A stretch of 57,066 nucleotides of DNA. Origin: Bacteroidales bacterium. GTDB lineage: Bacteria > Bacteroidota > Bacteroidia > Bacteroidales > VadinHA17. A program made the position numbers and the translations under genes. The notes beneath the pieces are model-generated. The model made no database searches and had not been told where the DNA came from. It worked only from the letters and a program-made list of their open reading frames with translations. Positions 29,338 through 51,760 of this stretch are shown here, in pieces; the stretch's first letter is position 1, and each line of letters starts with the position of its first letter. The stretch spans positions 1 to 57,066 of the forward strand of contig DAOQAX010000001.1 in assembly GCA_035354395.1 (NCBI GenBank), read 5' to 3'.

Positions 29338-30642
29338 CTATTTTTGCATTAAAGCTTCAACATTTTCAGCAAGTTCCTTAACTCTTGGTGCTTTCAGGAA
29401 AATTTTCAGAGGTAAATTAACATTAAACTCTGATCTGATTCTTGAAATCATAGTTACTGCTTTAAGTGAATCGCCTCCCAAATCAAAGAAGTTATCATTG
29501 ATTGAAATATTTTCATGCTTCAATATTTTGCACCAGATGTCATAAATAGCTGATTCCATCGGTGAAAGAGTTTCATTTGTTTCAATCTCGCTATCCAAAA
29601 GGTCAGATTGGTTAAACTTTAACGCCTTTCTGTCTACTTTCCTGTTTGGAAGACGTGGTAACTCCTTACATATTTGAAATAAAGATGGATGCATATATGA
29701 AGGAAGTTCTCTTGATATGCTCTCAATTATTTTTGCTTTGGAAAGCTCCGCTCTGGCATCCGGAACGACAAAGGCAATTAGTCTTAAGTCGTTCTCTTCT
29801 ATTTCGCAGAGTTTAACTACAGCATCACTTATTTCCGGGATCTTGTTAAGTTGATTTTCAATTTCACCAAGTTCAATTCTAAAACCTCTCAGTTTAACCT
29901 GGTTATCAATCCTGCCAAACAATTCGATATTGCCATCATAAAGAAATCTACCTAAATCTCCGGTTTTATAAATAAGGCCCTTACTATCCAATTGCAGGAA
30001 TTTTTCAGCATTTAGTTCAGGTCTGTTATGGTATCCTTTAGTTACTCCAAGGCCTCCGATAGCTACTTCGCCGATAACTCCCAAAGGAAGTTCCTTATTG
30101 TTTTTGTCAAGTATATGTACTGTAGTGTTGTTTATTGGTTTACCTACAATTATAGGTGCTTCAGGGTCAGTTATCCGATAGCAGGTTGACCATACTGTTG
30201 TTTCTGTAGGACCATACATATTCCATAGTGTGCCTACCCTGGCAAGAAGTTCTTTAACCAAAGAAGGGACTATGGCTTCGCCTCCTGATAAGGCTTTCAG
30301 ATTTTTCTTTCCGGTCCATCCGTCAGCTATCATCAAATTCCAGGTTGCAGGGGTAGCCTGCATCACAGTAATATCATACTTCTCAAGGAGCTTATATAGC
30401 GCATGGCCATCAATAATATTTTCTGATGACGCCATCACCACCTGTGCACCATTGGATATGGGAAGGAACAGCTCCAGCACTGATATATCAAATGATAAAG
30501 TGGTTACTGCCAGCAACCGGTCTTCACCGGTAAGTCCGGGAGTATCCTTCATGCTTAACAGAAAATTCACTACTGCCTGATGATGTACCTTTACTCCCTT
30601 TGGCTTCCCGGTTGACCCTGAGGTATAAATCAGATAAGCAAG
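29338..30642 (-). repeat. Copy 1 of the duplicated A(core)-T segment (C-terminal 434 aa of NRPS-B)
   Basis: It aligns without gaps to the C-terminal 434 aa of the PKS-NRPS (38943-40247). By manual count, 338 of 434 residues are identical. Nucleotide similarity is visibly high at the 3-prime ends. Confidence 0.85.
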
Positions 30643-33600
30643 AGATTGATTACTGATAACCACGTCAGGATTGTTCGAATCGCACCGGTCTATTTTGCCT
30701 CTCTCAGCATCCAGCAGAATCATTCTCTTTTCCGCTGATATGCCAACAAATTTGCTTTTTAATGAGTTCTGGGTAATCAGAATATCAGCTCCGGAGTCTT
30801 CAAACATATAAATCAGCCTGTCGTCCGGGAATGATGGATCCATAGGCAGGTAACAGCATCCTGACTTAAGCACTCCCAATACCGTCACCAGCATCTCAGC
30901 TGTCCTTTCCAGGCTTACTCCGATTGCATCTCCTGGTTTTACTCCCAGGGAAATCAGGTAATGAGCAAGCTGATTCGCTTTTGAATTCAGCTCTTTATAG
31001 GTTATTTGCAACCCTTCAGATATTACTGCAATCTTCCTTGAATTCCGGTCAACCTGCTCTTCAAATAAATTATGCACAACGCAGTCCGGCATGCTTACAC
31101 CGGTATCATTAAACTCAGCAAGTTGTTTTCTTTCATTATCAGAAATAACTGACAGCTCGGCAAGGGAAAGATCGGGAGCTGACACGAATGTCTCAAGCAC
31201 ATGGATAAATGCATCTTTCAGACGAATTGCCGTATTCCTGTTTATGAGATCCATGTTGTACTCCAATAACCCATGTATACAACCATCTGCTTCCCAAAGG
31301 CTCAATATAATATCAAAGGAAGTGGTTCTTTCCTCATTTGAAATCTGTGTACTTTTTATTCCATCGAGTCGTACAGGTACCCCAAGGTTATCCTGCCATG
31401 CAAAAACCACCTGGAACAATGGGTTTACATTCAACGCCCTCTCCGGATTTACTATGTCTACAACTTTATCAAAAGAAATATCCTGATGGCTTATAGCATC
31501 CATCGTCATGTTATGAGTAAATCTAAGGATATCCCTAAAAGTCTGCTCCTTTGAATATATGAGCCTGGCGACCACGTTATTGACAAACATCCCAAAGATA
31601 TTCTCAAGCTTTGAATGTGGCCTGTTTGTTACCCATAAACCAACGTTTAAGTCGTCCTCACCTGAATATTTATGTAATTCAATCCCATAGACACTTAAAA
31701 GAGTTGTATACAATGACACCCCTTCTGTTCTGCTAATTTCCTTAAGGCGTTGGGTAAGTTCCCTGGGTACAAATATTTCTTCATGGGCGCCCCTGTTTGT
31801 TGCCTGAACTTTTCTCTGGTAATCATATGGGAAGTTCAGTACCGAAGAACATCCCTGAAGGTTCTTTTTCCAGTATTCGGCAGATTTCCTGATTCGTTCA
31901 GAATCCCTGGTATCATGTTCCCATTTTGCATAATCGTATTCCTGAAACTCCAGTTCCGGAAGATATGGTTCCGCACCTGTCAAAAAACTATGGTAAATCG
32001 CACTTAAGTCATTTACAAATACGGACCACGACCATCCATCAAAAATGATATGATGGAAACTTATATGAAAATAATACTCTTCAGCTCCTGTAACAGCAAG
32101 CCAATGCCTGAACATAGGACCTTCCGCCAGATTGAATACCTGCATGGAATCTTCATCAAGAAGCTTCCGGATTCTCTCCTCCCTCTTCCCCTCAGGTTGA
32201 GTTTTTAAATCAATAACAGGAAGATCAATTGTTTTAGGTACTATTTCAAAATATGGAGTTCCATTTGACTCTTTTATGACAGAATAGACTACATAATGCC
32301 TCTTGAAGAGTTTATCAAGGCTCCTCCTGAAAATATCAATATCAAGTTTGCCAGTCAGCTTAAAGGTATATGGGATAATGTATGATGGCATATCCGGATC
32401 TATTTTGGATATAAGCCATAATCTCTCCTGATTGGCAGTCAATGGCAGATTGGTCATTTCCGGCAGATGAACCAGTTTAAATGAATCATCCTTCCCGGAA
32501 ATATTATTATCAATAAAATCAGCCAATCCGCTAAATGAAGAATTAGATCGTATTTCCCTGAAGGCTATTTTAACACCAAACTCTTCCCTGATCTTATTTA
32601 CCAGTCTGATAGCAAGAAGTGAGTTGCCCCCTATATTAAAGAAATCATCATTAACACCTATAGAACTTGTTTTCAAGATAGCACACCAGATATTATATAG
32701 TCTCTTCTGTGTCTCACTGAGTGCATTAAGGTCTGTCTCTGAAAGAGGCTCTGACTCTTCTATCTCATACAAGAGGGCTTTCTTGTTTATTTTTCCGTTT
32801 GGCAGTCGTGGGAAGCCATCCATCATCTTGTAATATGACGGGACCATATACCCTGGCACCTGTTGTGACAGGTGAGATATCAGTTCATCTCTTGTCAGTT
32901 TAAACTCAGGCCTGGTATTTAAGTAAGCTACAAGTCGTTCATCGCCTTCACCAAATCGCTGAAGCTTGACAACAGCTTCCCTGACTCCGGTTTCTCTTGA
33001 AAGAAGTATTTCGATCTCGCCGGGTTCAATCCTGAATCCTCTCAGTTTTATCTGATTATCAGCTCTCCCGAAAAGCTCAATATTTCCATCACTTAAGAAA
33101 CGACCCAGGTCACCGGTTTTATACATTCGCACGCCATCTTCCCTTTCAATAAATTTTTCAGCTGTCAGATCCGGCCGGTTACGATATCCCTGTGCAACAC
33201 CTGATCCGCTTATGCATAATTCCCCTACTGCTCCTAAAGGAAGAAGATTGTTGTTTTTATCAAGTATAAAGGCCCTGGTATTATTTATTGGTTTACCTAT
33301 GTGAATTACCGATTCAGGATCATTTATCCTTGTGCATGTGGCATAGACTGTAATTTCAGTAGGCCCATAACAATTCCAGAATTCTGATACTCTGGGTAAC
33401 ATTTGTTGTATCAATGCCGGGCTCACAGGCTCTCCTCCACATAATGCCTTAAGGTCACTTTTCCCTTTCCATCCGGCTGACAGAAGAATGTTCCAAAGCG
33501 AAGGAGTGGCCTGAATAACACTGATATCATAATTGTCGATAAGTTCAATCAGCGACTGGCCGTTTGTAATATCCTGGGTGGAAGCCACCACCAGGGTCGC

Positions 33601-36600
33601 TCCGTTAAGAAGGGTGGTGAATATTTCATACACCGACATATCAAATGATAATGTCACTACTGCAAGCAATCTCTCCTTTTCAGAGAAGCCCGGAGTAACA
33701 GTCATGCTCTTTACCAGGTTTACAACTGACCGGTGAGTAATTGGAACCCCTTTGGGACGACCGGTGGATCCGGAGGTATAAATAATATATGCAAATGAAT
33801 CAGGAGTAGCTGTAACTTCAGGTCGTGATACAGGAAAACCTGAAATTGCATTCCAATCTTTATCAATTAATATTGCTGACACTCCACTAAACGAGTCAAA
33901 CGCCTCAGCAAGTGAACCTTGCGATATCATCACCTTCGAACCTGCGTCCTCAAGCATAAAATTAAGTCGTTCACCCGGGAACAAAGGATCAAGGGGAAGA
34001 TAGCAACATCCTGCCTTTAAGATTCCCAAAACAGCAACGATCATTTCAACATTACGCTCCATGTAAATACCCACTATCTCACCCGGTTTCACGCCAACAG
34101 AAAGCAGATAATTAGCCAGCTGATTGGATCTCTCATCCAGCTGCTTATACGTTAAGCTTTCAACACCCGAGATAACCGCGGGTTTATCGTGATACTTAAC
34201 CGATATATTTTCAAGTTCCTGATGTAAGGTTTGCTCAGGTATGATTGCATCCGTACTGTTAAACTCCAAAAGCTCCCTTATATCATTTTCTGTTGCAACA
34301 GACAGGTTTGAAATGGTTTTATCAGGATTTGTAACAAGATTATTAATCAGAGCAATATAACTATCCCTGATCCTTAAGATAGTCTCCTTCCTAAGAAGGT
34401 CAGAGTTATATTCTATCTCTCCCTCAATAACATCTCCATTCTCCCACAAATAAAGAGAGAGATCAAAAATAGGAGCACGATCTTTTGCCCTTACACTCTC
34501 TGTTGTTATCCCTTCAAAAGTCAGCGGTTTATTAAGGTTATTCTGCCAGACAAAGCCAACCTGGAACAATGGATTAGCGGTAGAGTTACGATCCGGGTTT
34601 ACTATCTCCACCACTTTCTCAAATGGCAGATCCTGGTGCGCAATTGCTGATAATGCCGAACCATTTGTTGCGCGAATCAGACTTTTAAAAGTATCCCCCT
34701 CTTCAAACTGCAGGCGAACCACAACAGTATTGACAAACATGCCAAAAATGTTCTCCAGACCGGGATGAGGCCTGTAGGCTATTGGCAATCCAATATTCAG
34801 ATCATCATCACCGGAATATTTATTCATCTGTATTCCAAATGCTGCCATCAGTGTAGTGAAAAGAGATGCCCCGGCATCCCTGGAAACGCTCCTGATCTTA
34901 TCTGACAATAATTCAGGTATACTGATGGCCTCGAAGCTACCCCTCCCGGTTGGTTTATTGATACGCTGGAAATCATATGGAAAATTCAGAATCGGAGAAC
35001 ATCCCTGCAGTGTCGTTTTCCAGAATTCAATTGATTTGGTTTTATCTGCGATATCGTCAACAGTGGTTTCCCAACCGGCATAATCGTATTGCTGAAACTC
35101 TATTGCATCAAGGTTTGGAGCTTCTCCCTTTACAAGACTATTGTATATTGCACTCAGGTCATCAACCATTACTCCCTGAGACCAGCCATCAAAAACAATA
35201 TGATGAATACTCAGATTAAAATAATGCTCATCCGGAGCAGTCTTTATAAGGGATACACGGAACAATGGCCCGCGTGATAAGTCAAACGGAAGTTTTGAAT
35301 CCTCTGCTAAAAAGTCAGCAACACTATTTAATTTTTCACCTTCATTTATTGAGGTAAAATCAATCAATGGAAGAGTAATATGTTTTTCTGAAATGTTAAA
35401 GTAAGGCTCACCATTTTCTTCATGAATTTCAGAGAACACAATATGATGTCTATGGAATAATGCATTCAGGCTCTTCTCAAACACCTCCGTGTTCAGGTTT
35501 CCTTTTAACCTGTATGTCGACTTGATAATATAATATGGGATATCAGGTTCCGATTGTGAAATGAGCCAGATCCTTTTCTGATTTCTTGTCAATGGCAGCC
35601 CGGATGACTCTTGTAAATGGACCATATCCATTGGTTTTGCCGATCCGAGCACCTGCTTATCAAGGTATGCGCTTAATTGAGCAATTGTTGAGTTGGCAAC
35701 CAAATCCCTGAAGTTGATTGTTATGCCAAACTCACTCCATATCTGATTTATAAGCCTGATGCCAAGAAGTGAGTTACCGCCGGCATCAAAAAAGTCAACA
35801 GAGATTGAAAGCTTTTGCAGCTTAAGGATTGACGACCAAATAGAATATATCTTTTTCTGAGTCTCAGTGAGAGTAGCAAAATCTGCTTCAGCTGTCCTCT
35901 CCTGGTCAGATTCTATAGTTTCATATACCAGAGCTTTTTTATCTATCTTCCCATTTGGCAGCCTGGGGAAACCATCCATTATCCTGAAATATGATGGCAC
36001 CATATACCCGGGCACATGTTGTGAAAGGTATGATATCAGTTCATCTCTTGAATGTTCAGCGTCAGGCTCAGCATTAATGAATGCTACAAGCCGCTCGTCG
36101 CCTTCACTGAATTTTTGTAGTTTAACAACAGCCTCTCTGACGCCAGTCAGGCGTGCAATAAGAGTTTCAATTTCACCCGGCTCTATTCTGAATCCCCTTA
36201 GTTTGATCTGATTATCGATCCTTCCAAATAGTTCGATATTACCGTCTTCGAGGAACCGGCCAAGGTCTCCGGTTTTATAAATAATTCCCTGGCCATTAAG
36301 CGGGATAAACTTCTGGGAGGTCAAATCAGGTAAATTGTTATACCCTTTTGTTACACAGTCACCTCCTATTGCCACCTCTCCAATTACACCAACAGGAAGT
36401 GGCATGTTGTTTTTATCCAGTATAAATATCTTTGTGTTATCCAGCGGTTTACCTATGACAATAGGTGCATCTGCATCGGTAACCCTTCCGATAGAGGCAT
36501 ATACTGTGGTCTCTGTCGGGCCATAGCAATTCCAGAATTCAGCAACTTTAGGAAGCACCTGGCTAACAAGTGATTGTGTCAATGCTTCTCCGCCACATAA

Positions 36601-40247: not shown

Positions 40248-43200
40248 AAACTCAGGTGTCATCGTTACCTTTAAATTTCCAGCATTACCAGCATTGATCT
40301 TTGCTTTTTCTTCATCTGTAAAAACTTCCAACGACACTTTGAAGCCGCGTGCATTTTCTTTCAATGAGGATTGGGTAATGAGAACATTTGCCCCGGAATC
40401 TTCAATCATAAAAGCAAGCCTCTCTCTCGGGAAGGATGGATCCATCGGCAAATAACAGCATCCTGCTTTCAATATACCAAGTACTGAGACAATCATTTCA
40501 ACCGAGCGTTCCATATAGATCCCGACCACTTCACCAGGTTTCACTCCATGTGAAATCAGATATGAGGCTAACTTATCTGACTTTTCACTCAACTCTTTAT
40601 AGGTCAGTTTTGAATCTCCGCAAATAGCAGCTACTGAAGAAGGATATCTCTTCGCCTGTTGTTCAACAAGATCCTGTATAAGGCAATCCGGCAATGGAAC
40701 ATTTGTATGGTTGAATTCATTAAGCATCTTCTTGTCGTTATCAGATATTATTGAAAGATCAGAAATCTTCTGGTCGGAATTGTCAACAGCCGATTGAATC
40801 AATTCAATGAAATTTTCAACCATACTGGTAACAGTACTTTGTTTTAGTACATCAATATTATATTCTACTTCACCTTCTATCAGTTCTTCATTTTCCCATA
40901 GGTTAAAAGTCATATCAAGTGGAGACACGATCTCTTTCACCTCTACTCTTTCAGCACTAAAACCATTAAAATCAACCGGTTTAGCCGAATAAGTAATCCA
41001 CTGAACAGCCATCTGGAATATAGGATTAACATTCAGGAACCTCTCCGGCCGCACCAGCTCGACAATTTTTTCAAATGGTAATTCCTGATGGGTTAGTGAT
41101 TCCAATAAAACATTCCTGACATCCCTGATATAGCTTCGCAAGGTTTGGTCCCTGTCAATATTCAGTCTTATTGGTATAGTGTTAACAAACATCCCGAATA
41201 TCTTTTCGAGACTTGACATAGGACGGTTTGCCACATGTGTTCCGATACATATGTCCGTCTCTCCGGAGTAGCGGTGAAATAATATACCCATAAGCGAAAG
41301 CATCACAGCAAATGGGGTAGCATGTTCTTCCCTGGCAATCTTTTTTATTTTTGCAGTGACCTCAAGTGGAATTTGTATCCTCACCTTTTCTCCAAACCCA
41401 GAAGCAGTCTCCTTCCGGGGATAATCATATGGGAACTCTAATTTAGAAAGACAGCCCTTAAGAGAATTGATCCAGAAATCTTCAGATTCGCGGTTAAAAG
41501 GATTATCTCCTTCACGCTGAAGTTCTTCTGCATAATCAAGATAACATTCTTTAATGTCCTCTAGTTCCAGTTCCTTATTAAGGGAGAGGCTATTATATAT
41601 CGATTTTAAATCATTTAAAAATATGCTATACGACCAACCATCGAAAACCATATGATGGAATGTACAATGAAAGTAGTAATTCGAATCATTGAGTTTATAC
41701 AGGTGCAGCTTGTATAAAGGTCCGCTTTCAAGGTTAAAGCACTTTCGGGAAGCCTGTCCTATGGATTCATAAATCTCTTTTATGCTTCTCTCAATGTTTT
41801 TGCCTGAAAAATCATGCATCTCAACTTCAACAGGCTTAGGTCGGATGAAACAATAGGGAATGCCATCTTTTTCCTTAAACAAGGAAAAGACAATAAAGTG
41901 CCTGTTAAACAGAACATCCAGCGATTTCCTGAAGATATTGATATTTATTTCCCCGGTCAGCTTAAAAGTAAAGGGGATATTATATGCAGGATTTGCCACA
42001 TCCAGTTTTGATACAATCCAGATGCTTTTTTGCATAAATGATAGTGGATAATTCTCCAGATCAATCTTCTGGACAGATTTTTCAACCGGTTCAGGCTTCT
42101 TCTCTTCCAAACTGAATCCTGAACACAATTTATTTACTGTCGGATTGTCAAGAAATTCCTTTAATGTAACCTTTATTCCAAGCTCTTCTTTTAACCGGGT
42201 AATGATCTGCAGGGCCAGTAATGAATGACCACCTAACTCAAAGAAGTCATCATCAAAATCAATCCTGTCAATACCGATTAATTGCTTCCATATTAAAGCT
42301 ACTTTGTCAGCAATCGATGATGCGGCTAAAGTTGTCTCCTGACCTTCCGGTGACGATAAATCTTTGATAATGGGATTCCCCTTACTGCCTTCCGCAGCAG
42401 AATCATCTTCGTTAATTACTCCGGAGGGGCGGTAGTCAATCCAATGGCGTTTATTTTCAAATGGATATACAGGCAATGCCATTTTTTGCTGTTTGCCTTG
42501 TCCGTAAAATGCATTAAAGTTCACTTTATAACCGACATTAAACAAGTGCCCCAGAGCAGCAACAATCTTATATCGTTCATCAGCATTGTCAATCTTACCA
42601 AGAGTGCTGATAATTAGCTTTTTATCTTTAATATCACCTGACTGTTTTGCTAACGAACTTATATGAGTATTAGGACCTACTTCAAGGAAGACAGTTCCTT
42701 CATTTTTTGCAATTTCTGACAGCCCTTTACTAAAAAGAACTGTGTTTCTTAACTGCTGAGCCCAATATGCACCATCAGTAGCCTGACTGTTTGTTATATA
42801 ACTTCCGGTCAGGCAGGATATAAACGGTTTGTCGGGGTTTTTCAAACTAAACTGATTCACATAATCTGCAAATTCTGATAAAATAGGGTCAAAAGCAGCA
42901 GAATGGAAAGCGTGTGAAGTATTAAGCGGGATAAATGGTATACCGTTTTCTTCGAGTAGTTTTTGTACTTTTTCAGCGTTTTCAGGAGTAAAAGATATTG
43001 TGCATGCAGTTGAAGCATTGTCAGCAGCAATTTCAAAACATCCGGTCTTTAATGGCTCAAGCTTTTCAACATTAGCTCTTACTGCCATCATTTTTCCTGA
43101 TGGCATCCGGCCCATGAGCTGACCTCTTTTAATTACAATCCTTAAAGCCGTTGGCAGGTCAAAAACTCCGGCCAGACAAGCTGCGGAATACTCTCCAATA

Positions 43201-45071
43201 CTATGACCAATTAAGTAGTCAGGTTTGATGTCCAGCTCCTCCAATAATTTAGCCAATGCATACTCAATAATAAAAAGAGCTGGCTGTGCCAGTTCAGTTC
43301 TGGCTAAATTAGACTCTGAAGAATCAGTAATATCATTAAATATCAAAGACTTAATATCTTCATTTGTCTCTTGTCTGTATATTTCAAAACATTCATCGAG
43401 GATTTTTCTGAAGGACTGGTTTTTGTTGTACAAATCCATTCCCATTTGTACATACTGAGCTCCCTGTCCCGGAAACAGGAAGGCGATTTTTGAGGGTTGA
43501 CTCACCGCTCTCCCATCAGTAAATACATTTTGATCAGAAATAACATCCTTTACTTCAGATGCAACAGTAAAACTCCGGTATTGCATAAAGCTTCTTCCAT
43601 AGGCCAGAGTATTGGCAACACCGTTTATGTGAAGTTCTTTGCCTGCCTTTAAGAATTCAACCAGGTCCTGCTTGCGTTTGTCTAAAGAATATTCAGATTT
43701 TGCAGATAGCACTAACAATTGTGGCCATTCTGCCTTTGGTTCCATGGTCTTTTCCGGCACAGGTGGTTCCTCCACAATGACATGAGCATTGGTTCCGCCT
43801 ATCCCGAATGAACTGACTCCCATTATCATAGGCTCTTTCCTGGTCCATTCTTTAAGGTGATCCAGAACATAAAAAGGTGTATTTTCAAAGTCTATATGTG
43901 GGTTTGGTTTTGAAAAGTTCAGGCTTGCCGGGATTTTTTTATGATATGCAGAAAGGCATACTTTAATGAAAGAAGCAACTCCTGCTGCCACGTCAGTATG
44001 TCCGATATTGCTTTTGACAGATCCTATGCCGCAAAATTGTTTTCTGGTGGTTTTTCGCGAGAAAGCCTTTGTCAATCCGGCTATTTCAATCGGGTCTCCA
44101 AGCTGAGTAGCAGTTCCGTGAGCCTCAATATAGCCGATCTCATCAGGAGACACCTCGGCAAAGGCCTGTGCCATCATTATCACCTCTGCCTGTCCATCGA
44201 CACTTGGAGCTGTAAAACTCACTTTATTGTTACCATCATTATTAAGAGCCCATCCTCTCACCACAGCATAAATCACATCGCCATCTCTTTCAGCGTCTTC
44301 AAGCCTTTTTAAAACAACAGCTCCCACTCCGTTACCTGGAACCGTACCCTTTGCCATCGCGTCAAAGGGACGGCAGTAACCGTCAGGTGAAGGTATTGCG
44401 CCTTCCTGATAAATATACCCTGTCTCTTGTGGAATGGTAATACATACACCTCCTGCAAGACATATGTCCGATTCAAAGCTGTACAAGCTCTGGCAGGCCT
44501 GTGAAATTGCAACCAGGGAGGTGGAGCAGGCAGTCTGTACATTTATTGCCGGGCCTCTCAGGTTAAATTTGTATGCAGTCTTGGTTGAGATATATGAAGG
44601 GTCATTTCCGGTAGTTATTTGATAAGCATCAGGAGATCTGAATCTTATGAAATTTTCCATTTTTTTCTGACCTCTCAGTACATTATTAAGAAGATATGTA
44701 CTCATTGTTCCCCCGGCGAATACACCTATTGCACCTTTATAGCTGAATGGGTCGCAACCTGCATTTTCCAACGCCTGCCAGGCAGTCTGAAGCCATATCC
44801 TATGCTGAGGATCAGTCCCCGCAGCCTCTGCCGGTGTCATGCCAAAAAATGAGGCATCGAACTTATCAACATCATCAAGAATCCCTTTTGCCTTTACGAA
44901 ATCAGGGTTATTTTTCAGAAGATCAAAATTATATTCAAATTCTGCGAGTTCCTCGTCTGAAAAATGCCTGATAGTGTTTTTCCCGGATATCAGGTTGCTC
45001 CAGTATTCATCAAGGCTGTTGGCTCCCGGATATCTGCAGGCCATTCCAATAACAGCAATTTTATTAGGCAT
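38943..45071 (-). CDS. Hybrid PKS-NRPS: KS-AT-CP-C-A-T
   Basis: 2042 aa. KS: VQTACSTSLVAI, EAHGTATQLGDPIE, SNIGHTDVAAG. AT: GHSIGEYSAACLAG with HAFHS (malonyl-type). Carrier: FFELGGHSLLAL. C: HHMVFDGWS. A: YIIYTSGSTGKPKGV...YKTGDLGRY. T: FFDLGGDSLKAV. No KR, DH, ER or TE. Confidence 0.95.
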   Translation of the reverse strand: MPNKIAVIGMACRYPGANSLDEYWSNLISGKNTIRHFSDEELAEFEYNFDLLKNNPDFVKAKGILDDVDKFDASFFGMTPAEAAGTDPQHRIWLQTAWQALENAGCDPFSYKGAIGVFAGGTMSTYLLNNVLRGQKKMENFIRFRSPDAYQITTGNDPSYISTKTAYKFNLRGPAINVQTACSTSLVAISQACQSLYSFESDICLAGGVCITIPQETGYIYQEGAIPSPDGYCRPFDAMAKGTVPGNGVGAVVLKRLEDAERDGDVIYAVVRGWALNNDGNNKVSFTAPSVDGQAEVIMMAQAFAEVSPDEIGYIEAHGTATQLGDPIEIAGLTKAFSRKTTRKQFCGIGSVKSNIGHTDVAAGVASFIKVCLSAYHKKIPASLNFSKPNPHIDFENTPFYVLDHLKEWTRKEPMIMGVSSFGIGGTNAHVIVEEPPVPEKTMEPKAEWPQLLVLSAKSEYSLDKRKQDLVEFLKAGKELHINGVANTLAYGRSFMQYRSFTVASEVKDVISDQNVFTDGRAVSQPSKIAFLFPGQGAQYVQMGMDLYNKNQSFRKILDECFEIYRQETNEDIKSLIFNDITDSSESNLARTELAQPALFIIEYALAKLLEELDIKPDYLIGHSIGEYSAACLAGVFDLPTALRIVIKRGQLMGRMPSGKMMAVRANVEKLEPLKTGCFEIAADNASTACTISFTPENAEKVQKLLEENGIPFIPLNTSHAFHSAAFDPILSEFADYVNQFSLKNPDKPFISCLTGSYITNSQATDGAYWAQQLRNTVLFSKGLSEIAKNEGTVFLEVGPNTHISSLAKQSGDIKDKKLIISTLGKIDNADERYKIVAALGHLFNVGYKVNFNAFYGQGKQQKMALPVYPFENKRHWIDYRPSGVINEDDSAAEGSKGNPIIKDLSSPEGQETTLAASSIADKVALIWKQLIGIDRIDFDDDFFELGGHSLLALQIITRLKEELGIKVTLKEFLDNPTVNKLCSGFSLEEKKPEPVEKSVQKIDLENYPLSFMQKSIWIVSKLDVANPAYNIPFTFKLTGEININIFRKSLDVLFNRHFIVFSLFKEKDGIPYCFIRPKPVEVEMHDFSGKNIERSIKEIYESIGQASRKCFNLESGPLYKLHLYKLNDSNYYFHCTFHHMVFDGWSYSIFLNDLKSIYNSLSLNKELELEDIKECYLDYAEELQREGDNPFNRESEDFWINSLKGCLSKLEFPYDYPRKETASGFGEKVRIQIPLEVTAKIKKIAREEHATPFAVMLSLMGILFHRYSGETDICIGTHVANRPMSSLEKIFGMFVNTIPIRLNIDRDQTLRSYIRDVRNVLLESLTHQELPFEKIVELVRPERFLNVNPIFQMAVQWITYSAKPVDFNGFSAERVEVKEIVSPLDMTFNLWENEELIEGEVEYNIDVLKQSTVTSMVENFIELIQSAVDNSDQKISDLSIISDNDKKMLNEFNHTNVPLPDCLIQDLVEQQAKRYPSSVAAICGDSKLTYKELSEKSDKLASYLISHGVKPGEVVGIYMERSVEMIVSVLGILKAGCCYLPMDPSFPRERLAFMIEDSGANVLITQSSLKENARGFKVSLEVFTDEEKAKINAGNAGNLKVTMTPEFLAYIIYTSGSTGKPKGVKVHHRGVVNFLLSMKTNPGFSREDRLLAVTTLSFDISVLEIFLPLSNGAQVIVAVPEDITDGQRLEKLISRHDITVMQATPATWNLLLEEGWKGKKNMKALCGGEALTPTLAQKLIPRVKTLWNMYGPTETTVWSTCYQITDSEAPILVGRPINNTTVYILDDTNRELPVGVIGEVGIGGDGVTKGYHNRPELNAEKFVQLDSKGIVYKTGDLGRYLYDGNIELFGRIDNQVKLRGFRIELGEIENQLMKVPEIKDVVVKLCKVEENDFRLIAFIVTDTKEKLSKTKIIEQISRELPSYMLPSLFQVYKELPRLPNGKTDKKALKFDKSDLLDSDIEINEVLSPTESVIYSIWCKILKHENISVNDNFFDLGGDSLKAVTLMARIKSELKVDLPLKALLKAPRIKELAESVESLLQK

Positions 45072-45220: not shown

Positions 45221-45991
45221 TTATTGAGCGCTATATCCGCCATCAATGACTAAGCTCGACCCTGTCACCCATTTTGAAGCATCTGACAGTAAATAGACAG
45301 CGGCAAGGGCCACATCATCAGGATCTCCTATACCCAGGGGGTGCATCCTGGTTATTTCCTGAACTCGTTCATCCGAATATTTCGAGAACATCTTTTCAAT
45401 TAATGGAGTATTACATACTGCAGGCAGGATTGTATTAACCCTGATACCTGAAGGTGATAGTTCAAGTGCCATTGCTTTTGCCCCGCTGATAAGGGCACCT
45501 TTTGAACTGCAATATCCAATTTTCCCTACCTGACCAACCATGCCCATGACAGAAGCGATGAAAACCACAGACGCTTTATTATTTAACCCGCTTTTCCTTA
45601 TCAACTGCCGGCTCACTTCAAAACCTGCAATAACGTTTGTATTAAAAAGCATCTGGTAATCCTTTGGTTTCATCATATAAGCGGGCAGAGTCAGTTCATA
45701 TCCCATTGAAGAAATGAAGCCATCAATTTTCCCATATTTCTGAAGGGCATCTGCGACCATCTTCTCAACGACATCAAACTCGCACAGGTCACCAATATAT
45801 TTGCTGTGATCACCAGGCTTGAGCATCTCATATGTCTCCTGCAGCCGGTTTTCATCACGGCCTGAAATAAGCAGTGATGCTCCTGACATACTGCACCTGA
45901 CAGCACACTGTCTTCCTATGCCCGAAGAGGCTCCGGTTATGATGATTTTCTTCCCCGACAGGGAAAAAGGGCTCTCAGAAACAGATGTCAT
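45221..45991 (-). CDS. Short-chain dehydrogenase/reductase (FabG-like ketoreductase)
   Basis: 256 aa with ITGASSGIGRQ (TGxxxGIG) and catalytic YCSSKGAL (YxxxK). The start lies 1 nt after the upstream KASIII stop. Confidence 0.85.
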   Translation of the reverse strand: MTSVSESPFSLSGKKIIITGASSGIGRQCAVRCSMSGASLLISGRDENRLQETYEMLKPGDHSKYIGDLCEFDVVEKMVADALQKYGKIDGFISSMGYELTLPAYMMKPKDYQMLFNTNVIAGFEVSRQLIRKSGLNNKASVVFIASVMGMVGQVGKIGYCSSKGALISGAKAMALELSPSGIRVNTILPAVCNTPLIEKMFSKYSDERVQEITRMHPLGIGDPDDVALAAVYLLSDASKWVTGSSLVIDGGYSAQ

Positions 45992-45992
45992 T

Positions 45993-47051
45993 TTATATTG
46001 TTATTACAGGAAGTATTTTACAATCATTAAGATCCAGCAACATTGATCCCCATGAAAGGCCAACCCCAAAACCTGACAAAACCAATCTTGTTCTTCCTGC
46101 CCGCAGTTTATTTTCTGCGTCAACTATTGTCAAAGGGATACTCGCTGAACTCGTATTCCCATAAGATGACAACGAAAGCGGATACTTTTCAGCGGGAATT
46201 TTAAGTTTTCGTGCCAGATAGTCAACCATAAATTTGTTTGCCTGATGAAAGAAGAAAAGGTCAATGTCTTCAACAGTGGCATTTGCAGCATCAAGGAGGC
46301 CAATAATATCCTTTGGTATCTCTCTTAAGGTAAAGTTAAAGATTTCGGGGCCATCCATAAATATATTTTCCTTTGAACGCAGGTTTTTGTCAGGGCCCTC
46401 TGTCACTTTTACAGTAAACTCAGAAGAAGGAAGCCTGTACCCCCCGCCCTCAATGATAAGCGATTTTGCTCCCGAACCATCAGAGCTTAAGGAACAATAC
46501 ACCGGGCTCGCAGAACTGTCTTTTTCAATGAGTGTCGCACTTCCTGCATCACCAAACAAAAGATTGCTTGACTTATCCTGTGGAGAAACATTTTTGGACG
46601 ATGTGTCACCAACCAGCAAAAGGACTTTGGAAATAGCAGGTTGATTCAGGAAACTAAACGCCATTGAAAGTCCGTAGACATATCCTGAACATCCTAAATT
46701 TATATCAAAAGCAAGTGTTCCTTTTTTTAAGCCGAGCTTATCCTGAAGAATACATGCTGTTGCGGGCAACCGGTAATCCGGTGTTTGTGACACAAAGATA
46801 ACAGCATTAACATCTTCCCTGTTTACGGAAAGTTTCTCAAGCAGTTCGGAGGCAGCTTCGAAACACAGATCTGATGTGCATATCTCAGATGGAGAAACAT
46901 GCCTCTGATAAACGCCTATGCTGTCGATGGTCTTTTTTAGTTCTTCCTCGGTGAAAAGGCTTGATCCGAACTGGCTGTTTTCAATTGTTTTTGCAGGAAC
47001 ACAGGCTGAAATGCCGGCAATTTTAACACCCTCAAATTTAAGATGTCCCAT
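45993..47051 (-). CDS. KAS III (FabH-like) condensing enzyme or acyltransferase, copy 2
   Basis: 352 aa with Cys-His-Asn triad contexts NLGCSGYVYGL, FFHQANKFM and YGNTSSASIP. Confidence 0.85.
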   Translation of the reverse strand: MGHLKFEGVKIAGISACVPAKTIENSQFGSSLFTEEELKKTIDSIGVYQRHVSPSEICTSDLCFEAASELLEKLSVNREDVNAVIFVSQTPDYRLPATACILQDKLGLKKGTLAFDINLGCSGYVYGLSMAFSFLNQPAISKVLLLVGDTSSKNVSPQDKSSNLLFGDAGSATLIEKDSSASPVYCSLSSDGSGAKSLIIEGGGYRLPSSEFTVKVTEGPDKNLRSKENIFMDGPEIFNFTLREIPKDIIGLLDAANATVEDIDLFFFHQANKFMVDYLARKLKIPAEKYPLSLSSYGNTSSASIPLTIVDAENKLRAGRTRLVLSGFGVGLSWGSMLLDLNDCKILPVITI

Positions 47052-47055
47052 ATTG

Positions 47056-47277
47056 TTATTGTAAGTTTTCCGGGCCTATCAGGCCTATTAAATCACTAAT
47101 CTTGTTAATATTCTTCAGGTCAGCTGTCTTTACCTGTTTATTAAAATGTTCATCAATAAAGGCCATCACTGCAAGAGTTGTTAAAGACGTCAGCTGTACC
47201 GGGGTGTTTTCATTAACTTCACTGGCTTCAATCATTAAAACTTCCTTTATGTCAGAATAAAAATCTACTTTCTTCAT
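47056..47277 (-). CDS. Stand-alone acyl carrier protein
   Basis: 73 aa and acidic. Candidate phosphopantetheine Ser in VQLTSLTTLAVMAFIDEHF. It sits between two KASIII genes with 4- and 39-nt gaps. Confidence 0.65.
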   Translation of the reverse strand: MKKVDFYSDIKEVLMIEASEVNENTPVQLTSLTTLAVMAFIDEHFNKQVKTADLKNINKISDLIGLIGPENLQ

Positions 47278-47316
47278 AGCATCTATCTACTTTAAATAAT
47301 TTGTATACAGTATTTG

Positions 47317-48315
47317 TTAAATTTCAATTATAGTTGCCCCCCAGGAATATCCTACTCCAAAGCCGACAATCAATACTTTGTCGCCAGGTTTAATTCTTTT
47401 GGACGAAATGGACTCCTTTAAAGCAATAGGGATTGTAGAGGAAACCGTATTCCCGGTCTCTTTCATGTCCTGGTAAAATTTTTCATCAGGAAATTTCAGC
47501 TTCCTCTTCAGGTAATCAAGCATGTATTTATTTGCCTGGTGGAAAATTATATAATCGACTTCATCGATACTTAAATTATTTTTCTTCAGTACCGAATCAA
47601 CAAGATGAGGAACTCTTTCCAGGGTAAAGTTAAATATCCCGGGTCCATCCATGAATAAATAATTATCATTTAAAACATTTCCTGCACTATCGTACCGGTC
47701 TGCCTCTTCAGGATCGGGTCGGTTTCTAAGCCCTCCCCTACGGACTATCAGGTTATCTTTTCCTGAACCATCAGTGCCAAGCTCAAAGCCAAAAATATGT
47801 TCCTTTCCCGCGTATGAAATTATTGTAGCCGCGGAACCATCTCCGAAAATACTTCTGTTTGATTTATCCTTAGGATGTATATGCTTTGAATATGTTTCTG
47901 CTGTTACAAGCAGGATGTTTTTACATATTTCGCTGTTTATCAATCCTTTTGCCAGAGCCAGGCCATAAATAAAGCCCGAACATCCCTGATTTATATCCAG
48001 TGCTCCGATATTTGTCCTTAGCTTCAACTTATCCTGTAATATACAGGAGGTTGTTGGAAGGAAATAGTCCGGGCTCTGGGTGCACAGTATTATAAAATCA
48101 ATGGATGAAGGATCAAATTCAGCTAATACCTTACTTGCAGATGCATATGCAAGATCTAGCGCAGTCTCATTATCCCCTGTAATGTGACGACGTTCAATGC
48201 CTATCTTTTCATTTATCTTGTTTGCATCCCACTCCGGAAACTCATTTGACAACTGAATGTTATCCAGAATTTTGTCGGGAAGATAATATCCTATTCCAGA
48301 AATTTTTGCGCCCAT
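47317..48315 (-). CDS. KAS III (FabH-like) condensing enzyme, copy 1
   Basis: 332 aa with triad contexts NQGCSGFIYGL, FHQANKYM and TGNTVSSTIP. Confidence 0.85.
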   Translation of the reverse strand: MGAKISGIGYYLPDKILDNIQLSNEFPEWDANKINEKIGIERRHITGDNETALDLAYASASKVLAEFDPSSIDFIILCTQSPDYFLPTTSCILQDKLKLRTNIGALDINQGCSGFIYGLALAKGLINSEICKNILLVTAETYSKHIHPKDKSNRSIFGDGSAATIISYAGKEHIFGFELGTDGSGKDNLIVRRGGLRNRPDPEEADRYDSAGNVLNDNYLFMDGPGIFNFTLERVPHLVDSVLKKNNLSIDEVDYIIFHQANKYMLDYLKRKLKFPDEKFYQDMKETGNTVSSTIPIALKESISSKRIKPGDKVLIVGFGVGYSWGATIIEI

Positions 48316-48544
48316 TTAGAATATTTCAGTATTAATGGTCAACACAATAAACCGATGTACCAGGTATAAAAAACTTAAATAGAGTCAACTTAATGTGACA
48401 TTATTTAATCGTTTGATATTTAACCCTATAAAAAGTCCTTAAACAAATATAGTGAAAAATATTGATTACTCTTTAGTCATTAGTCCTTTCAGCCTGAAGT
48501 GATCATACTTACATCTGACCGGGTTGTAAATTCTACCAGCCGGG

Positions 48545-51500
48545 TCAGAATCTTCGTTTTTGAAAGTCGACATTCTTCCTCATTTTGATTTTATCCTCAA
48601 TGTTATTATCGCTTTCTATCCTGTCATTTTTGTTAATCAGGCCGGAAATAAATTCACTCTGTCCCTTAATATTAGGGTATTCAAAGACAGTAATTGTGCT
48701 GAATATTATGTTAAACTCTTTTGAGATCAATGTTGCAAGGTTTATGGCAAGAAGTGAATTGCCTCCACTTTCAAAGAAGTTATCGTTGATACTTATGCTT
48801 TCAACCTTAAGGCACTCCTTCCATAACCCGGATAGTGATTTCTCTATACTGTTTGCAGGAAGTACAATCTCATCTGCAGAGCTCTTTCGTTCGGGTTTGG
48901 GCAGGGCCTTCCGGTCTAACTTCCCACTGGTTGTCAGCGGGAGGTGGTCAATGAAGATGAAAAATGAAGGCACCATATAATCCTGAAGCTTTGAGGTCAG
49001 GAATCTTCGCATCTCATCTATATCCGTTTTAGCGCCAGGTTTAAGGCAGGTATAAGCTACCAGGGATTTTGTGTCAGAATTTTCGGTTACTATCACCGCG
49101 CAGTTTGTGACATCGGGGTGTTTATGAATCTGTGACTCAATATCGCCCAATTCGATTCTGAATCCCCTGATCTTCACCTGGTTGTCTATTCTTCCTATAT
49201 AATCTATCTCACCTTCTTTGGTCAGCTTTACCAGGTCGCCGGTGCGATAAGCTCTGACACTCTTCTCTTTTGAAATTTTAAAATCGAAGAATCTTTCAGC
49301 TGTCAGTTCGGGGTGATTCATATATCCTCTTGCGAGATTTACCCCGGTGATCAATAATTCACCCGGGATACCTACCGGTTGAATTTTCATCTTGCTGTTG
49401 ACAACAAATAATTTTGTGTTATCAATAGGCTTTCCGATATATACCTGTTTGATATTGTCTGCCGGGCAATTATAAAAAGAAACATCCACTGTGGCTTCTG
49501 TTGGTCCATAGAGGTTTATTATATCAGGCAGCTTTATCTCACTTCTCATTTCATTGAACTCTTCAACAACCTTCAGCGGCAATGCCTCTCCGCTCATAAA
49601 TATCCTCCTCAGGCCGGTAAGCTTTGAGAACATGTTTCTCGATTTCACCATTCCCTGGAATGCAATGAACATTGACGGCACAAAATGAATTGTTGTAACG
49701 CGGTATTTTTCAATATGCTGAATTATTGTTTCAGGGCTCTTTTCTCCCCCAGGAGGTAAAAGAAGCAGCCTGGCACCATAAAATGACCACCAGAATAATT
49801 CCCAGACTGACACATCAAATGTGGTGGGTGTTTTCTGAATAAGTGTGTCAGACTGATCAATAGGATAAGCCTTTTGCATCCAGCCAAGCCTGTTTAGTAC
49901 AGAGTGATGTTCAATCATTACGCCTTTAGGCACTCCGGTTGATCCAGAGGTATAAATTATATACGCTTTGTTTCTTGATGTAACTTTTGTAGCTGGTTTT
50001 GAGATGTTATCAGAAAGAGGTGTTTTTAAGATGTCTTCAATGAACAAAAGAGGAGTTCCGTCTGGTATATTCACTGATGAACTCTTTGTTGTGAGGATCA
50101 GTTTAGGGTTGGCATCTCCGATAATTGTCTTCAGTCGTTCTGAAGGAGTATCGGGGTTTAGAGGCAGGTAAGCTGCTCCGGCCTTCAGTACACCAAAAAT
50201 ACCTATCATCATCTCAGCCGACCGCTCAAGACATGTGCAGACCACATCCTCAACTTCAATTCCATCCTTAATCAACCGGTTGGCAGTACGGTTGGCATGT
50301 TCGTCGAGCTCCCTGTATGTCAATGATTGATCGTTAAATAAAAGAGCATCAGAGTGCGGTGTCTTTTGAACCTGTTGCTCAAACTTCTCATGAATGCACA
50401 GGCTCTCTTCATAAGCAGCATTTGTGTCATTCAGTTCATTGATGAAAGCCAGGTCCCCATCAGGAGCGATATCCATATCCATTATTGTATGATCCGGCTC
50501 AGTCATCATTGACTTTAATATCGTCTTATATATTCCCCAGATACTTTCTGCCATCTCCCTGTTAAAAAGATCTGAGGAATATTCAAGGTAAACATGATAC
50601 TTACCGCTTATCTCCCACAAAGAAAAGAAGAGATCCAGCTGTGCCCCGTCCCGTTCAATAAACTGTGCATTCACCTCAGCCCCCTCAAGGTCAAGATGGA
50701 CGCCTGGGTCAAAGGTAAATCCAGCCTGAAACAACCCGCTCCCATCGCCAGGACCAAGAAGGGAATTAAGCAACAGATAAGGAACTTCTTCCTTCCGGTC
50801 AACCTTAAACATCGATGAAAGAATCTGCTTCATCAGACCCGTGCCTGTCAAATCATCAGATAACCGGACAGGCAATGGCAATATATTTACAAAGCATCCA
50901 AATGTGTTCCTGAATTCCGTTTTCCTTCTGTTCCTGAACGGTACGCCAATGTTTATCTCTGATTTGTTTGTGAGTTTATTAAGAAGAACGGCATATGCAC
51001 TTAATAAAACAATGAAATCATTAACTGCATTCTTTTCCGCAAACTGAGATATCTCTGCCACCGGAAATTCATCAAGCACCAAATGAATTCTTTTGCCTGC
51101 ATCACTGCTCACTTTTGAGCGACCGGTTGTGTTTGCAAACTCAAGCTTTTCAGGCTTTGACGGAATAAAATTTCTCCACTCTTCAAGCTTTTTCTGTGCG
51201 TTCTCGGTTGTTTGCCAGTCGCGCAGCCAGTCGGAGTACTCAAAATAGTTATTTGCAAGCAGCTCCGCATCAGGCTCTTGTTTCAGGTAATACGATTTAT
51301 ACAGCGCAGACAGCTCTTTGAAAAAATTCCCTGCCGTAACAAGGTCAAATATTATATGATGGAAGACAAGAACCAGAACAGTTTCATTACTATATTCAAA
51401 TACTCCTGCTCTGAAATATGGCCAGCAACCAATATCAAATGGTCTGTGAATCAACTCATATACTTCACATGATAACGGATCACTGACAAAAGAGGTATCA

Positions 51501-51760
51501 ACTTTTGTTATCTCTGTCTTGATTTTACATTCCTCAGGATCTTTCACATACTGAAATACTTTACCACCGTCTTCTGTAAAAATGGTACGCAACATGTCAT
51601 ACCTCGAAACAATAGTATTAATTGCATTGTTAAATGTATCAATACAAAAATCTCCCTTTATTATTGCCATATAGGGAAGGTTATAGGCAGTAGTATCAGG
51701 GTAAAGTTTCTGTAGAACCCAGAATTGTTGTTGAATTTGAGAAATTTCGCATTTTTTCAT
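48545..51760 (-). CDS. Single-module NRPS, C-A-T, A domain with a Ser code (NRPS-A)
   Basis: 1071 aa. The C domain starts at residue 1 (HHIIFDLV at 134-141). A core AYIIYTSGSTGVPKGV (599-614). T FFESGGNSLLAI (Ser1002). No release domain. Confidence 0.95.
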   Translation of the reverse strand: MKKCEISQIQQQFWVLQKLYPDTTAYNLPYMAIIKGDFCIDTFNNAINTIVSRYDMLRTIFTEDGGKVFQYVKDPEECKIKTEITKVDTSFVSDPLSCEVYELIHRPFDIGCWPYFRAGVFEYSNETVLVLVFHHIIFDLVTAGNFFKELSALYKSYYLKQEPDAELLANNYFEYSDWLRDWQTTENAQKKLEEWRNFIPSKPEKLEFANTTGRSKVSSDAGKRIHLVLDEFPVAEISQFAEKNAVNDFIVLLSAYAVLLNKLTNKSEINIGVPFRNRRKTEFRNTFGCFVNILPLPVRLSDDLTGTGLMKQILSSMFKVDRKEEVPYLLLNSLLGPGDGSGLFQAGFTFDPGVHLDLEGAEVNAQFIERDGAQLDLFFSLWEISGKYHVYLEYSSDLFNREMAESIWGIYKTILKSMMTEPDHTIMDMDIAPDGDLAFINELNDTNAAYEESLCIHEKFEQQVQKTPHSDALLFNDQSLTYRELDEHANRTANRLIKDGIEVEDVVCTCLERSAEMMIGIFGVLKAGAAYLPLNPDTPSERLKTIIGDANPKLILTTKSSSVNIPDGTPLLFIEDILKTPLSDNISKPATKVTSRNKAYIIYTSGSTGVPKGVMIEHHSVLNRLGWMQKAYPIDQSDTLIQKTPTTFDVSVWELFWWSFYGARLLLLPPGGEKSPETIIQHIEKYRVTTIHFVPSMFIAFQGMVKSRNMFSKLTGLRRIFMSGEALPLKVVEEFNEMRSEIKLPDIINLYGPTEATVDVSFYNCPADNIKQVYIGKPIDNTKLFVVNSKMKIQPVGIPGELLITGVNLARGYMNHPELTAERFFDFKISKEKSVRAYRTGDLVKLTKEGEIDYIGRIDNQVKIRGFRIELGDIESQIHKHPDVTNCAVIVTENSDTKSLVAYTCLKPGAKTDIDEMRRFLTSKLQDYMVPSFFIFIDHLPLTTSGKLDRKALPKPERKSSADEIVLPANSIEKSLSGLWKECLKVESISINDNFFESGGNSLLAINLATLISKEFNIIFSTITVFEYPNIKGQSEFISGLINKNDRIESDNNIEDKIKMRKNVDFQKRRF

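Follow-up and report, generated by a model that had tools for sequence, protein, structure and literature searches.

Which product leaves an assembly line that has no release domain and lies among the genes of a surface polysaccharide? This question is raised by a hybrid of nonribosomal peptide synthetase (NRPS) and polyketide synthase (PKS) modules on contig DAOQAX010000001.1 of an uncultured Bacteroidales bacterium (VadinHA17 lineage; GenBank assembly GCA_035354395.1), of which positions 1 to 57,066 were analysed and are here called the window. An earlier account of the same letters (the sequence-only reading) had delimited the line, read the substrate codes of its adenylation domains and considered the product a lipopeptide. 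We propose instead that the line makes an N-acyl side chain of a surface polysaccharide, which would be released without a thioesterase (TE) by way of a GNAT-like enzyme, a reading to which we give about even probability.

The NRPS/PKS genes do not simply adjoin a Wzx/Wzy polysaccharide locus but are part of its interior, with polysaccharide genes on both flanks. Every gene between 6970 and 51760 is on the minus strand, separated from the next by a short gap. The earlier gene coordinates between 29338 and 51760 were borne out. The assembly line and the genes closest to it are given here in the order of transcription (C, A and T, condensation, adenylation and thiolation domains; KS, ketosynthase; AT, acyltransferase; ACP, acyl carrier protein; KASIII, ketoacyl-ACP synthase III; SDR, short-chain dehydrogenase/reductase; PPTase, phosphopantetheinyl transferase; CE4, carbohydrate esterase family 4).

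48545..51760, minus strand: NRPS-A, C-A-T, 1071 aa (Pfam; A domain about 48920-50383)
47317..48315, minus strand: KASIII (FabH-like) a, 332 aa (Pfam; active-site GCSG and HQAN)
47056..47277, minus strand: stand-alone ACP, 73 aa (Pfam; probable attachment Ser in LTSLTTL)
45993..47051, minus strand: KASIII b, 352 aa (Pfam; GCSG, HQAN, GNTSSA)
45221..45991, minus strand: SDR/FabG-like ketoreductase, 256 aa (Pfam)
38943..45071, minus strand: PKS-NRPS, KS-AT(malonyl)-ACP-C-A-T, 2042 aa (Pfam; A domain about 39243-40664)
29338..38784, minus strand: NRPS-B, three C-A-T modules, 3148 aa (Pfam)
about 35947-37377, about 32791-34200 and about 29638-31062, minus strand: A domains A1, A2 and A3 of NRPS-B
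28573..29334, minus strand: Sfp/HetI-type PPTase, 3 nt downstream of NRPS-B
27450..28460, minus strand: predicted tandem (double) GNAT-fold acyltransferase, 336 aa (weak Pfam GNAT match and AlphaFold2 model)
26428..27420, minus strand: CE4 polysaccharide deacetylase (Pfam PF01522; motifs TFDDG, HTILHP, AYPNG)

Proposed chain release without a thioesterase

Neither a TE nor a reductase (R) domain nor a terminal C domain was found by Pfam in the 57 kb window. The relatives used for comparison, numbered with L and P, are homologous loci and proteins, nearly all of them metagenomic; the TE genes of L008 and L010, taken as tblastn queries, had no match in the window. These two loci represent a first type, in which the final NRPS gene is followed by a stand-alone TubC_N-TE gene, a long docking tail ending in "...GEI" extends from the last T domain, and the pair of GNAT-like and deacetylase genes is absent. 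The second type, which includes the window, has neither TE nor tail and carries a GNAT-like gene, usually followed by the gene of a CE4 deacetylase.

The GNAT-like family comprises 36 members, all metagenomic, for which Bacteroidales or Bacteroidetes are the only taxa named. Its gene adjoins a TE-less carrier-protein system in a polysaccharide locus in all ten related loci with enough flanking sequence:

P0127: KS-AT-T, PPTase, GNAT-like, deacetylase
P0129: C-A-T-KS-AT-T, GNAT-like, deacetylase
L014-L018: ...KS-AT-T, GNAT-like, then deacetylase in 4/5 (a C domain instead in L016)
L019: AT-ACP, PPTase, GNAT-like, deacetylase
L022: PPTase, GNAT-like
L023: deacetylase, GNAT-like, ACP, KASIII, SDR, KASIII; no NRPS or PKS

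The GNAT-like protein of the window has a weak Pfam GNAT match over residues 7-93. Its AlphaFold2 model (pLDDT 88.7) was matched by Foldseek to tandem-GNAT enzymes, namely N-myristoyltransferases and Eis-like proteins, with a probability of 1.0, and on this model the protein is predicted to have the GNAT-superfamily fold with two GNAT domains. A role as a FemX-like tRNA-dependent Gly transferase was considered and dropped for lack of a family match: NCBIfam and relaxed Pfam scans of the protein gave no FemAB or PEP-CTERM family assignment. The tandem-GNAT fold would still be compatible with it. The neighbouring CE4 deacetylase has its catalytic and metal-binding motifs intact and carries no signal peptide.

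The last T domains of PKS-NRPS, of NRPS-B and of the lines in L014-L018 form a distinct subtype, GGDSLxA(I/V)T...L(P/S)L(K/R)xF. PKS-NRPS ends in such a domain (GGDSLKAVT...LPLK) and has no docking tail. The C-terminal T domains of PKS-NRPS (38943-39180) and NRPS-B (29338-29577) are identical in 61 of 80 residues. Near-identical terminal T domains, together with Gly-type A domains of 69% identity in the same two proteins, point to an A-T duplication between them. The chain may have two exit points, after the first and after the second Gly, which would give a short and a long product; an iterative use of NRPS-B is speculation.

The lack of a TE, the Wzx/Wzy locus and the conserved GNAT-like/deacetylase pair together suggest that the product is bound to a sugar and is not a free metabolite, and we infer that release would proceed by aminolysis onto a de-N-acetylated sugar. 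The free lipopeptide of the sequence-only reading finds no TE in the window and stands against the position of the genes within a Wzx/Wzy locus, neither of which that account had mentioned.

A different arrangement is seen in L009 (11284-13668), where two NRPS genes enclose an MBOAT gene (490 aa) and a second gene of 301 aa, which recall DltB/DltD. By analogy this pair suggests an alternative, trans-membrane route of carrier-bound cargo to a surface polymer. The window contains no homologue of the L009 MBOAT protein according to tblastn.

A variable cassette in a conserved frame

L014 and L018 share the frame that lies downstream of the assembly line in the window, consisting of a beta-helix protein, Wzx (65-66% identity), Wzy (60-63%) and a glycosyltransferase (GT); L014 has in addition WecG and the upstream DUF218-like gene. 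The assembly lines of both loci differ from that of the window and are shorter, the one in L018 being C-A(Ser)-T plus KS-AT-T. Because the frame is shared and the lines are different, the assembly line behaves, on this comparison, as a variable cassette set among polysaccharide genes that are conserved. Literature searches found no description of NRPS/PKS lines inside polysaccharide loci; a "condensation domain" of Aeromonas O11, followed up as a precedent, was a false lead.

The locus type also occupies a conserved chromosomal position (54208-56995 in the window; L001, L010, L011 and P0023), after genes for a large CHU_C/T9SS-type protein, PorP/SprF and a PD40-PKD-OmpA protein. A CBM60-like protein is likewise found at that position in the lineage of the window and in the context of P0023. 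The content downstream of the position varies, as in a serotype-variable locus.

The acyl starter

Two KASIII, one ACP and one SDR are the only acyl-building genes in the window, and dehydratase (DH) and enoylreductase (ER) genes are lacking. Compared gene for gene, this cassette is 59, 51, 63 and 63% identical to the cassette of L028, the long-contig locus with the nearest homologue of KASIII b, and order and sizes (332, 73, 352 and 256 aa) are the same in both. A PglD-like (PglD_N/Hexapep) acyltransferase gene precedes the L028 cassette; genes for DegT aminotransferases, FnlABC and Wzx come after it. In Flavobacterium psychrophilum the genes wfpC-wfpD-wfpE-wfpF have been assigned to a 3,5-dihydroxyhexanoyl group, which the PglD-like WfpG puts on Qui2NAc4N (PMC6519341). 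The window cassette shows this wfpC-F-type gene order, KASIII-ACP-KASIII-ketoreductase (KR), inside a polysaccharide locus, and no F. psychrophilum name occurs among the top 120 homologues of KASIII.

By analogy with these systems the starter is most likely a short, hydroxylated, polar acyl group and not a lipid, and the cassette probably yields an acyl-ACP of the 3,5-dihydroxyhexanoyl type. Since it has a single reductase and two KASIII enzymes that each condense once, and DH and ER are missing, the cassette alone cannot make a long saturated chain, and a source of long-chain fatty acyl donors (fatty-acyl-AMP ligase, acyl-CoA ligase or a dedicated system) was not found among the window genes. 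The term lipopeptide in the sequence-only reading is not supported, since the starter is most likely short and hydroxylated and the one acyl source is an R-group-type cassette orthologous to the sugar N-acylation cassette of L028. The SDR could also act as a KR in trans on the beta-keto group of the PKS module.

The C domain of NRPS-A would receive this starter. In a sequence comparison with PDB entries it matched elongation C domains best (FscG, 7kvw, 1e-35; also 5u89 and Txo1/2), against 5e-16 for the starter C domain of SrfA-A (8f7f) and 4e-9 for that of RzmA (7c1h). The C domains closest to it in L008 and L013 each stand first in their line.

Substrates of the adenylation domains

The codes were read at the positions equivalent to GrsA 235, 236, 239, 278, 299, 301, 322, 330, 331 and 517. 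The GrsA reference was checked against PDB 1AMU (residues 1-556 identical except residue 2) and aligned by MAFFT with the five A domains of the window, and then within an alignment of 175 sequences. All five ten-residue codes of the sequence-only reading, with their residue numbers, were reproduced in this way, and the larger alignment differed in none. The code of NRPS-A is DVWHFSLVDK, with F721 and S723 under GrsA I299 and A301 in the 175-sequence alignment. The six-sequence alignment had placed L and G at 299 and 301 through a misplaced gap before the SGEA motif and was overruled. Both alignments gave DILQLGMVWK for the A domain of PKS-NRPS and for module 3 of NRPS-B, and DMYQLGCVYK for modules 1 and 2 of NRPS-B.

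DVWHFSLVDK is the serine code of EntF. The string occurs in two papers on siderophores or NRPS. The earlier assignment of Ser to NRPS-A is upheld by this exact match to the EntF-type code, and activation of Ser is strongly predicted. For Gly, a survey from 2025 gives the code DILQLGMIWK and a class that varies only at 299, 322 and 330 (PMC12283262). The window code DILQLGMVWK differs from it in a single position, 330, belongs to the class DILQ[LVI]G[LM][IV]WK and is the commonest code in the homologue set (22 instances), which agrees with the Gly previously proposed for PKS-NRPS and for module 3 of NRPS-B.

DMYQLGCVYK had been called "Gly-like". It agrees with the Gly code in six of ten positions (the differences are I236M, L239Y, M322C and W331Y) and does not match any known Gly code. 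It belongs to a class of its own, DM[YF]Q[LF]GCVYK, with at least ten instances in at least eight homologous proteins (DMYQLGCVYK, DMFQFGCVYK, DMYQFGCVYK and DMFQLGCVYK), often in the same polypeptide as the canonical Gly code. The A domains of the window show the same division, with 58% identity within the DMYQ pair, 69% within the Gly pair and 49-53% between the classes. As two pocket types are kept side by side in the same proteins, the substrate X of these modules is probably not Gly, and the label "Gly-like" gives way to that of a conserved class with a different substrate. The code suggests that the pocket is somewhat wider and that X is nevertheless a small residue, e.g., Ala or Ser. 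Full-text literature searches and the supplement of the 2025 code survey contained no match to DILQLGMVWK or to any DMYQ or GCVYK string. This conserved code without an assigned substrate is a clear target for specificity assays. A PDB sequence search with whole A domains, in which the two-A-domain entries of LgrA dominate the ranking, gave no information on specificity. The A10 motif in module 3 of NRPS-B (about 29640) is PNRK instead of PNGK, which is probably tolerated.

Order of assembly and condition of the domains

Homologues of PKS-NRPS are common in Bacteroidota metagenomes (42-63% identity); a scan of GTDB genomes with the protein gave one true relative, so that the family is almost entirely metagenomic. 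The sequence-only reading had left two orders of assembly, one collinear with the genes and one with NRPS-A acting last. In all seven relatives compared that have a DVWHFSLVDK module (L008, L009, L012, L013, L018, P0020 and P0023), this Ser module either comes right before the KS or is fused to it. It is the gene immediately before the KS gene in L008, L009, L012 and L018; P0020 and P0023 are single polypeptides of the type A(Ser)-T-KS-AT-T-C-A-T, and P0028, the protein of L013, reads C-A(Ser)-T-KS-AT-T-C-A(Val)-T-TE. The closest relative, L009 (a metagenome-assembled genome of Bacteroidota), has Ser, ketide, Gly, DMFQFGCVYK, DMFQLGCVYK, one more module and Gly. Because the Ser module precedes the KS in 7/7 relatives, the collinear order Ser-ketide-Gly-X-X-Gly is favoured over the second. 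The Ser-to-KS step appears as a conserved junction and predicts a Ser-derived gamma-amino-beta-keto(hydroxy) acid as a building block.

The KS of PKS-NRPS begins at residue 3 and has no N-terminal docking domain. The C-terminal 35 aa of NRPS-A (48545-48650), after the T domain, form a basic tail (KIKMRKNVDFQKRRF), and P0046 has a similar Arg-rich tail; in NRPS-A it could be a docking element towards the KS.

The AT carries GHSIGEY (residue 622) and HAFH (residue 720), both found as described before and of the malonyl type. The KS residues TACSTS, HGTAT and NIGHT are intact and the ACP Ser is present. T-domain serines and C-domain histidines are in place across the line; in NRPS-A the C domain has HHIIFDL and the T domain GGNSL. 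The first C domain of NRPS-B (about 38320-38340) reads LHIIFDG instead of HHxxxDG, with the first His lost and the second kept. The second His is the catalytic one, and the change is probably tolerated. Pfam finds KS, AT and PP-binding domains together with C, A and T in the assembly-line proteins, and no KR, DH, ER, epimerisation (E), methyltransferase (MT) or TE domain. This agrees with the earlier view of a PKS module without reducing domains in cis and of a line without E and MT, and modules of about 1050 aa are too short to hold any extra domain.

Relatives differ in the genes before the KS. In L008 (1-2303), L010 (6553-9848) and L011 (6659-9929) an AsnB-like amidotransferase, an ACP of 87-96 aa and a protein of 336-354 aa of no known family are encoded directly upstream of it; this set, which replaces the KASIII cassette in many relatives, may be another (perhaps amide-type) starter pathway. 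The TE-less L014 (3115-9741) and L015-L017 have a TubC_N docking domain, a C domain and about 600 aa without a Pfam match or A3 motif, followed by T-KS-AT-T. This stretch may represent an activating domain of divergent or non-canonical type. Upstream, L014 in addition encodes an MT-ACP protein.

Proposed pathway and its alternatives

According to the reading we propose, the cassette would build a short hydroxylated acyl-ACP, probably of the 3,5-dihydroxyhexanoyl type, in two single-shot condensations, and the C domain of NRPS-A would use it to N-acylate Ser on the NRPS-A T domain. KS-AT-ACP would then add one malonyl unit to the seryl thioester to give a gamma-amino-beta-keto unit, which the SDR may reduce, and Gly, X-X (DMYQLGCVYK; probably small, probably not Gly) and a further Gly would follow. 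In the cytoplasm the CE4 deacetylase would free an amine on a nucleotide- or lipid-linked N-acetylhexosamine, onto which the tandem-GNAT acyltransferase would move the chain from the terminal-type T domain by aminolysis. Wzx, Wzy, Wza and Wzc would finally flip, polymerise and export the decorated repeat unit. The six-module hybrid line may thus be understood, by analogy, as a more complex form of the "R-group" genes, the variable part of O-antigen loci in Bacteroidota. More generally, Bacteroidales surface polysaccharides would carry multimodular NRPS/PKS side chains, made by TE-less, interchangeable cassettes in a conserved Wzx/Wzy frame and off-loaded by a tandem-GNAT enzyme onto a CE4-exposed amine, here as (dihydroxyacyl)-Ser-C2 ketide-Gly-X-X-Gly. 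We regard this wider proposal as plausible, if slightly more apt to fail than to hold.

Several points weigh against the polysaccharide side chain. It is proposed here from gene content and by comparison. The likeness to wfpC-F is one of gene order and family, taken from the published description, and sequence homology was compared only with the metagenomic L028. The C domain of NRPS-A is more like the elongation than the canonical starter type. The Foldseek TM-scores of the GNAT-like protein are only about 0.55-0.60; GNAT enzymes normally use acyl-CoA, and we know of no precedent for a member of this family taking its acyl group from an NRPS T domain. The GNAT-like enzyme of L023 presumably serves its KASIII/ACP cassette directly, and that of the window could likewise serve the stand-alone ACP and not NRPS-B. 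Because PKS-NRPS, too, has a terminal-type T domain at its end, a shorter chain could be released from this protein. No DegT aminotransferase is encoded in the window, which leaves the deacetylase as the sole source of the acceptor amine. Outside the window, the genome could encode a type II TE or some other release factor.

The last point leads to the most obvious alternative, a free N-acyl (lipo)peptide-ketide acyl-Ser-C2-Gly-X-X-Gly that is hydrolysed or cyclised by a trans-acting TE encoded elsewhere, or spontaneously, with the polysaccharide genes as mere neighbours. The line is complete, its catalytic motifs are all intact and a PPTase is present; the related lines L008, L010 and L013 carry a TE and may release free products, and only 57 kb of the genome are visible. 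We nevertheless consider a free product somewhat unlikely, as the window lacks TE, R domain and terminal C domain as well as the C-terminal docking tail that the trans-acting TE of relatives uses, offers a cassette of the short R-group type and no fatty-acyl-AMP ligase or long-chain acyl source, and TE-less lines co-occur with the GNAT-like/deacetylase pair in polysaccharide frames.

The locus might instead make two products, with the GNAT-like/deacetylase pair moving only the KASIII/ACP-derived hydroxyacyl group to the sugar and the NRPS-PKS line primed and released independently. The gene set of L023, in which deacetylase, GNAT-like, ACP, KASIII, SDR and KASIII genes are adjacent and NRPS and PKS are lacking, fits such a division, as does the L028 cassette, which serves a PglD-like sugar acyltransferase, and the C domain of NRPS-A does not look like a canonical starter. 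However, L014-L019, P0127 and P0129 have the GNAT-like pair without a KASIII cassette, with only a PKS/NRPS line ending in T; the cassette of the window is placed between the NRPS-A and PKS-NRPS genes and does not adjoin the GNAT-like gene, and the NRPS line would still be without a release step. Two products are thus a decidedly improbable outcome in our judgement. We rate as very improbable the reverse order of assembly, in which the stand-alone ACP would prime the KS and NRPS-A would act last to give acyl-ketide-Gly-X-X-Gly-Ser. It is suggested by the elongation-like C domain of NRPS-A and by the ACP cassette immediately upstream of the PKS-NRPS gene, and is opposed by 7/7 relatives whose Ser A-T either immediately precedes the KS or is joined to it, including the single polypeptides P0020, P0023 and P0028, by the terminal-type T domain on NRPS-B and not on NRPS-A, and by NRPS-B, not NRPS-A, being the protein next to the PPTase and GNAT-like genes.

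Comparison with known systems

The closest known counterpart of the proposed side-chain pathway is the R-group pathway of F. psychrophilum (wfpC KAS, wfpD ACP, wfpE KAS, wfpF KR and the PglD-like wfpG; PMC6519341). The four-gene order is identical, both systems lie in a Bacteroidota Wzx/Wzy locus with L-FucNAc genes, both have a carrier-borne acyl group destined for a sugar amine (proposed for the window), and in both the R-group genes are the variable part of conserved loci. The window differs in lacking the PglD-like transferase and the PglE/DegT aminotransferase, in interposing six NRPS/PKS modules between cassette and transfer, and in the assignment of the transfer to an unrelated tandem-GNAT enzyme with a CE4 deacetylase. 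The A-domain read-out is in itself of a known kind, and the locus resembles a Bacteroidota R-group system with an inserted NRPS/PKS line and a different transferase.

Among characterised A domains, the Ser code is identical to that of EntF and the Gly code falls within DILQLG[LM][IV]WK; identity to solved A domains is only moderate, and the Ser thioester of the window would go to a KS and not to C/TE. The DMYQLGCVYK class has no characterised counterpart among canonical A domains. Tandem-GNAT N-acyltransferases such as N-myristoyltransferase and Eis-like enzymes share the predicted two-GNAT fold and the transfer of acyl from thioester to amine; the window protein shares 10-15% sequence identity with them (TM-scores 0.5-0.6), and those already known take the acyl group from acyl-CoA and pass it to proteins or aminoglycosides.

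D-alanylation by the Dlt system (DltA, the carrier DltC, the MBOAT protein DltB and DltD) likewise brings adenylated, carrier-bound cargo onto a surface polymer without a thioesterase. In contrast to it the window has no MBOAT gene, the proposed transfer would be cytoplasmic and of GNAT fold, and the cargo would be a multi-residue hybrid instead of a single amino acid. Mycobacterial glycopeptidolipids and other glycosylated lipopeptides have a long fatty acyl-peptide core, to which a few sugars are added after its reductive release. They too combine NRPS, PKS and sugar genes in one locus and are cell-surface glycoconjugates, but the window encodes a Wzx/Wzy/Wza/Wzc polymer pathway, its acyl group is likely to be short, and we propose that the glycan carries the peptide as a substituent.

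If the polysaccharide side chain is real, thiotemplate natural-product assembly would be joined to Wzx/Wzy glycan assembly, two fields usually kept apart, and a GNAT-fold transferase in place of a TE would be a new release logic for carrier-bound chains. Some "orphan" NRPS/PKS clusters of Bacteroidota metagenomes would then be surface-antigen decorations and not diffusible metabolites, which would alter mining and screening, and there would be a mechanism for an extreme chemical diversification of capsules or O-antigens.

Surrounding genes

The remaining genes of the locus and its ends are as follows.

25180-26277, minus strand: GT
23218-25014, minus strand: AsnB-type amidotransferase
21863-23188, minus strand: PaaK/F390-synthetase-like protein (aryl/F390 type)
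19702-21858, minus strand: ADH/GFO_IDH_MocA oxidoreductase (fusion)
18543-19721, minus strand: GH88-like protein
17777-18514, minus strand: WecG/TagA GT
16103-17716, minus strand: beta-helix protein
14632-15996, minus strand: Wzx
13281-14540, minus strand: Wzy-like polymerase
10435-13207, minus strand: two GT1
6970-10402, minus strand: FnlA/B/C-like L-FucNAc genes
4428-6818, plus strand: Wzc-like kinase, locus end
3596-4420, plus strand: Wza-like exporter, locus end
2168-3211, minus strand: exosortase, EpsH-like, locus end
102-1553, plus strand: initiating sugar-phosphate transferase, locus end
51947-52951, plus strand: weakly DUF218/CBM60-like membrane protein, position conserved in relatives
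52954-54114, minus strand: UDP-GlcNAc 2-epimerase, upstream of NRPS-A

A sigma-70 promoter and terminator scan of the junction between NRPS and polysaccharide genes, whose model does not cover Bacteroidota promoters, gave chance-level counts, and the terminator-like sites were all intragenic. The EpsH-like exosortase (2168-3211) is encoded where the polysaccharide locus ends, next to the initiating transferase and to Wza and Wzc, and the AsnB protein (23218-25014) also scores against the model of the XrtA/PEP-CTERM amidotransferase, below the cut-off. The encoded proteins are labelled Bacteroidales at NCBI, and the same sequence is present on several metagenome contigs, two of them from Joint Genome Institute (JGI) samples, which are presumably from anaerobic digesters.

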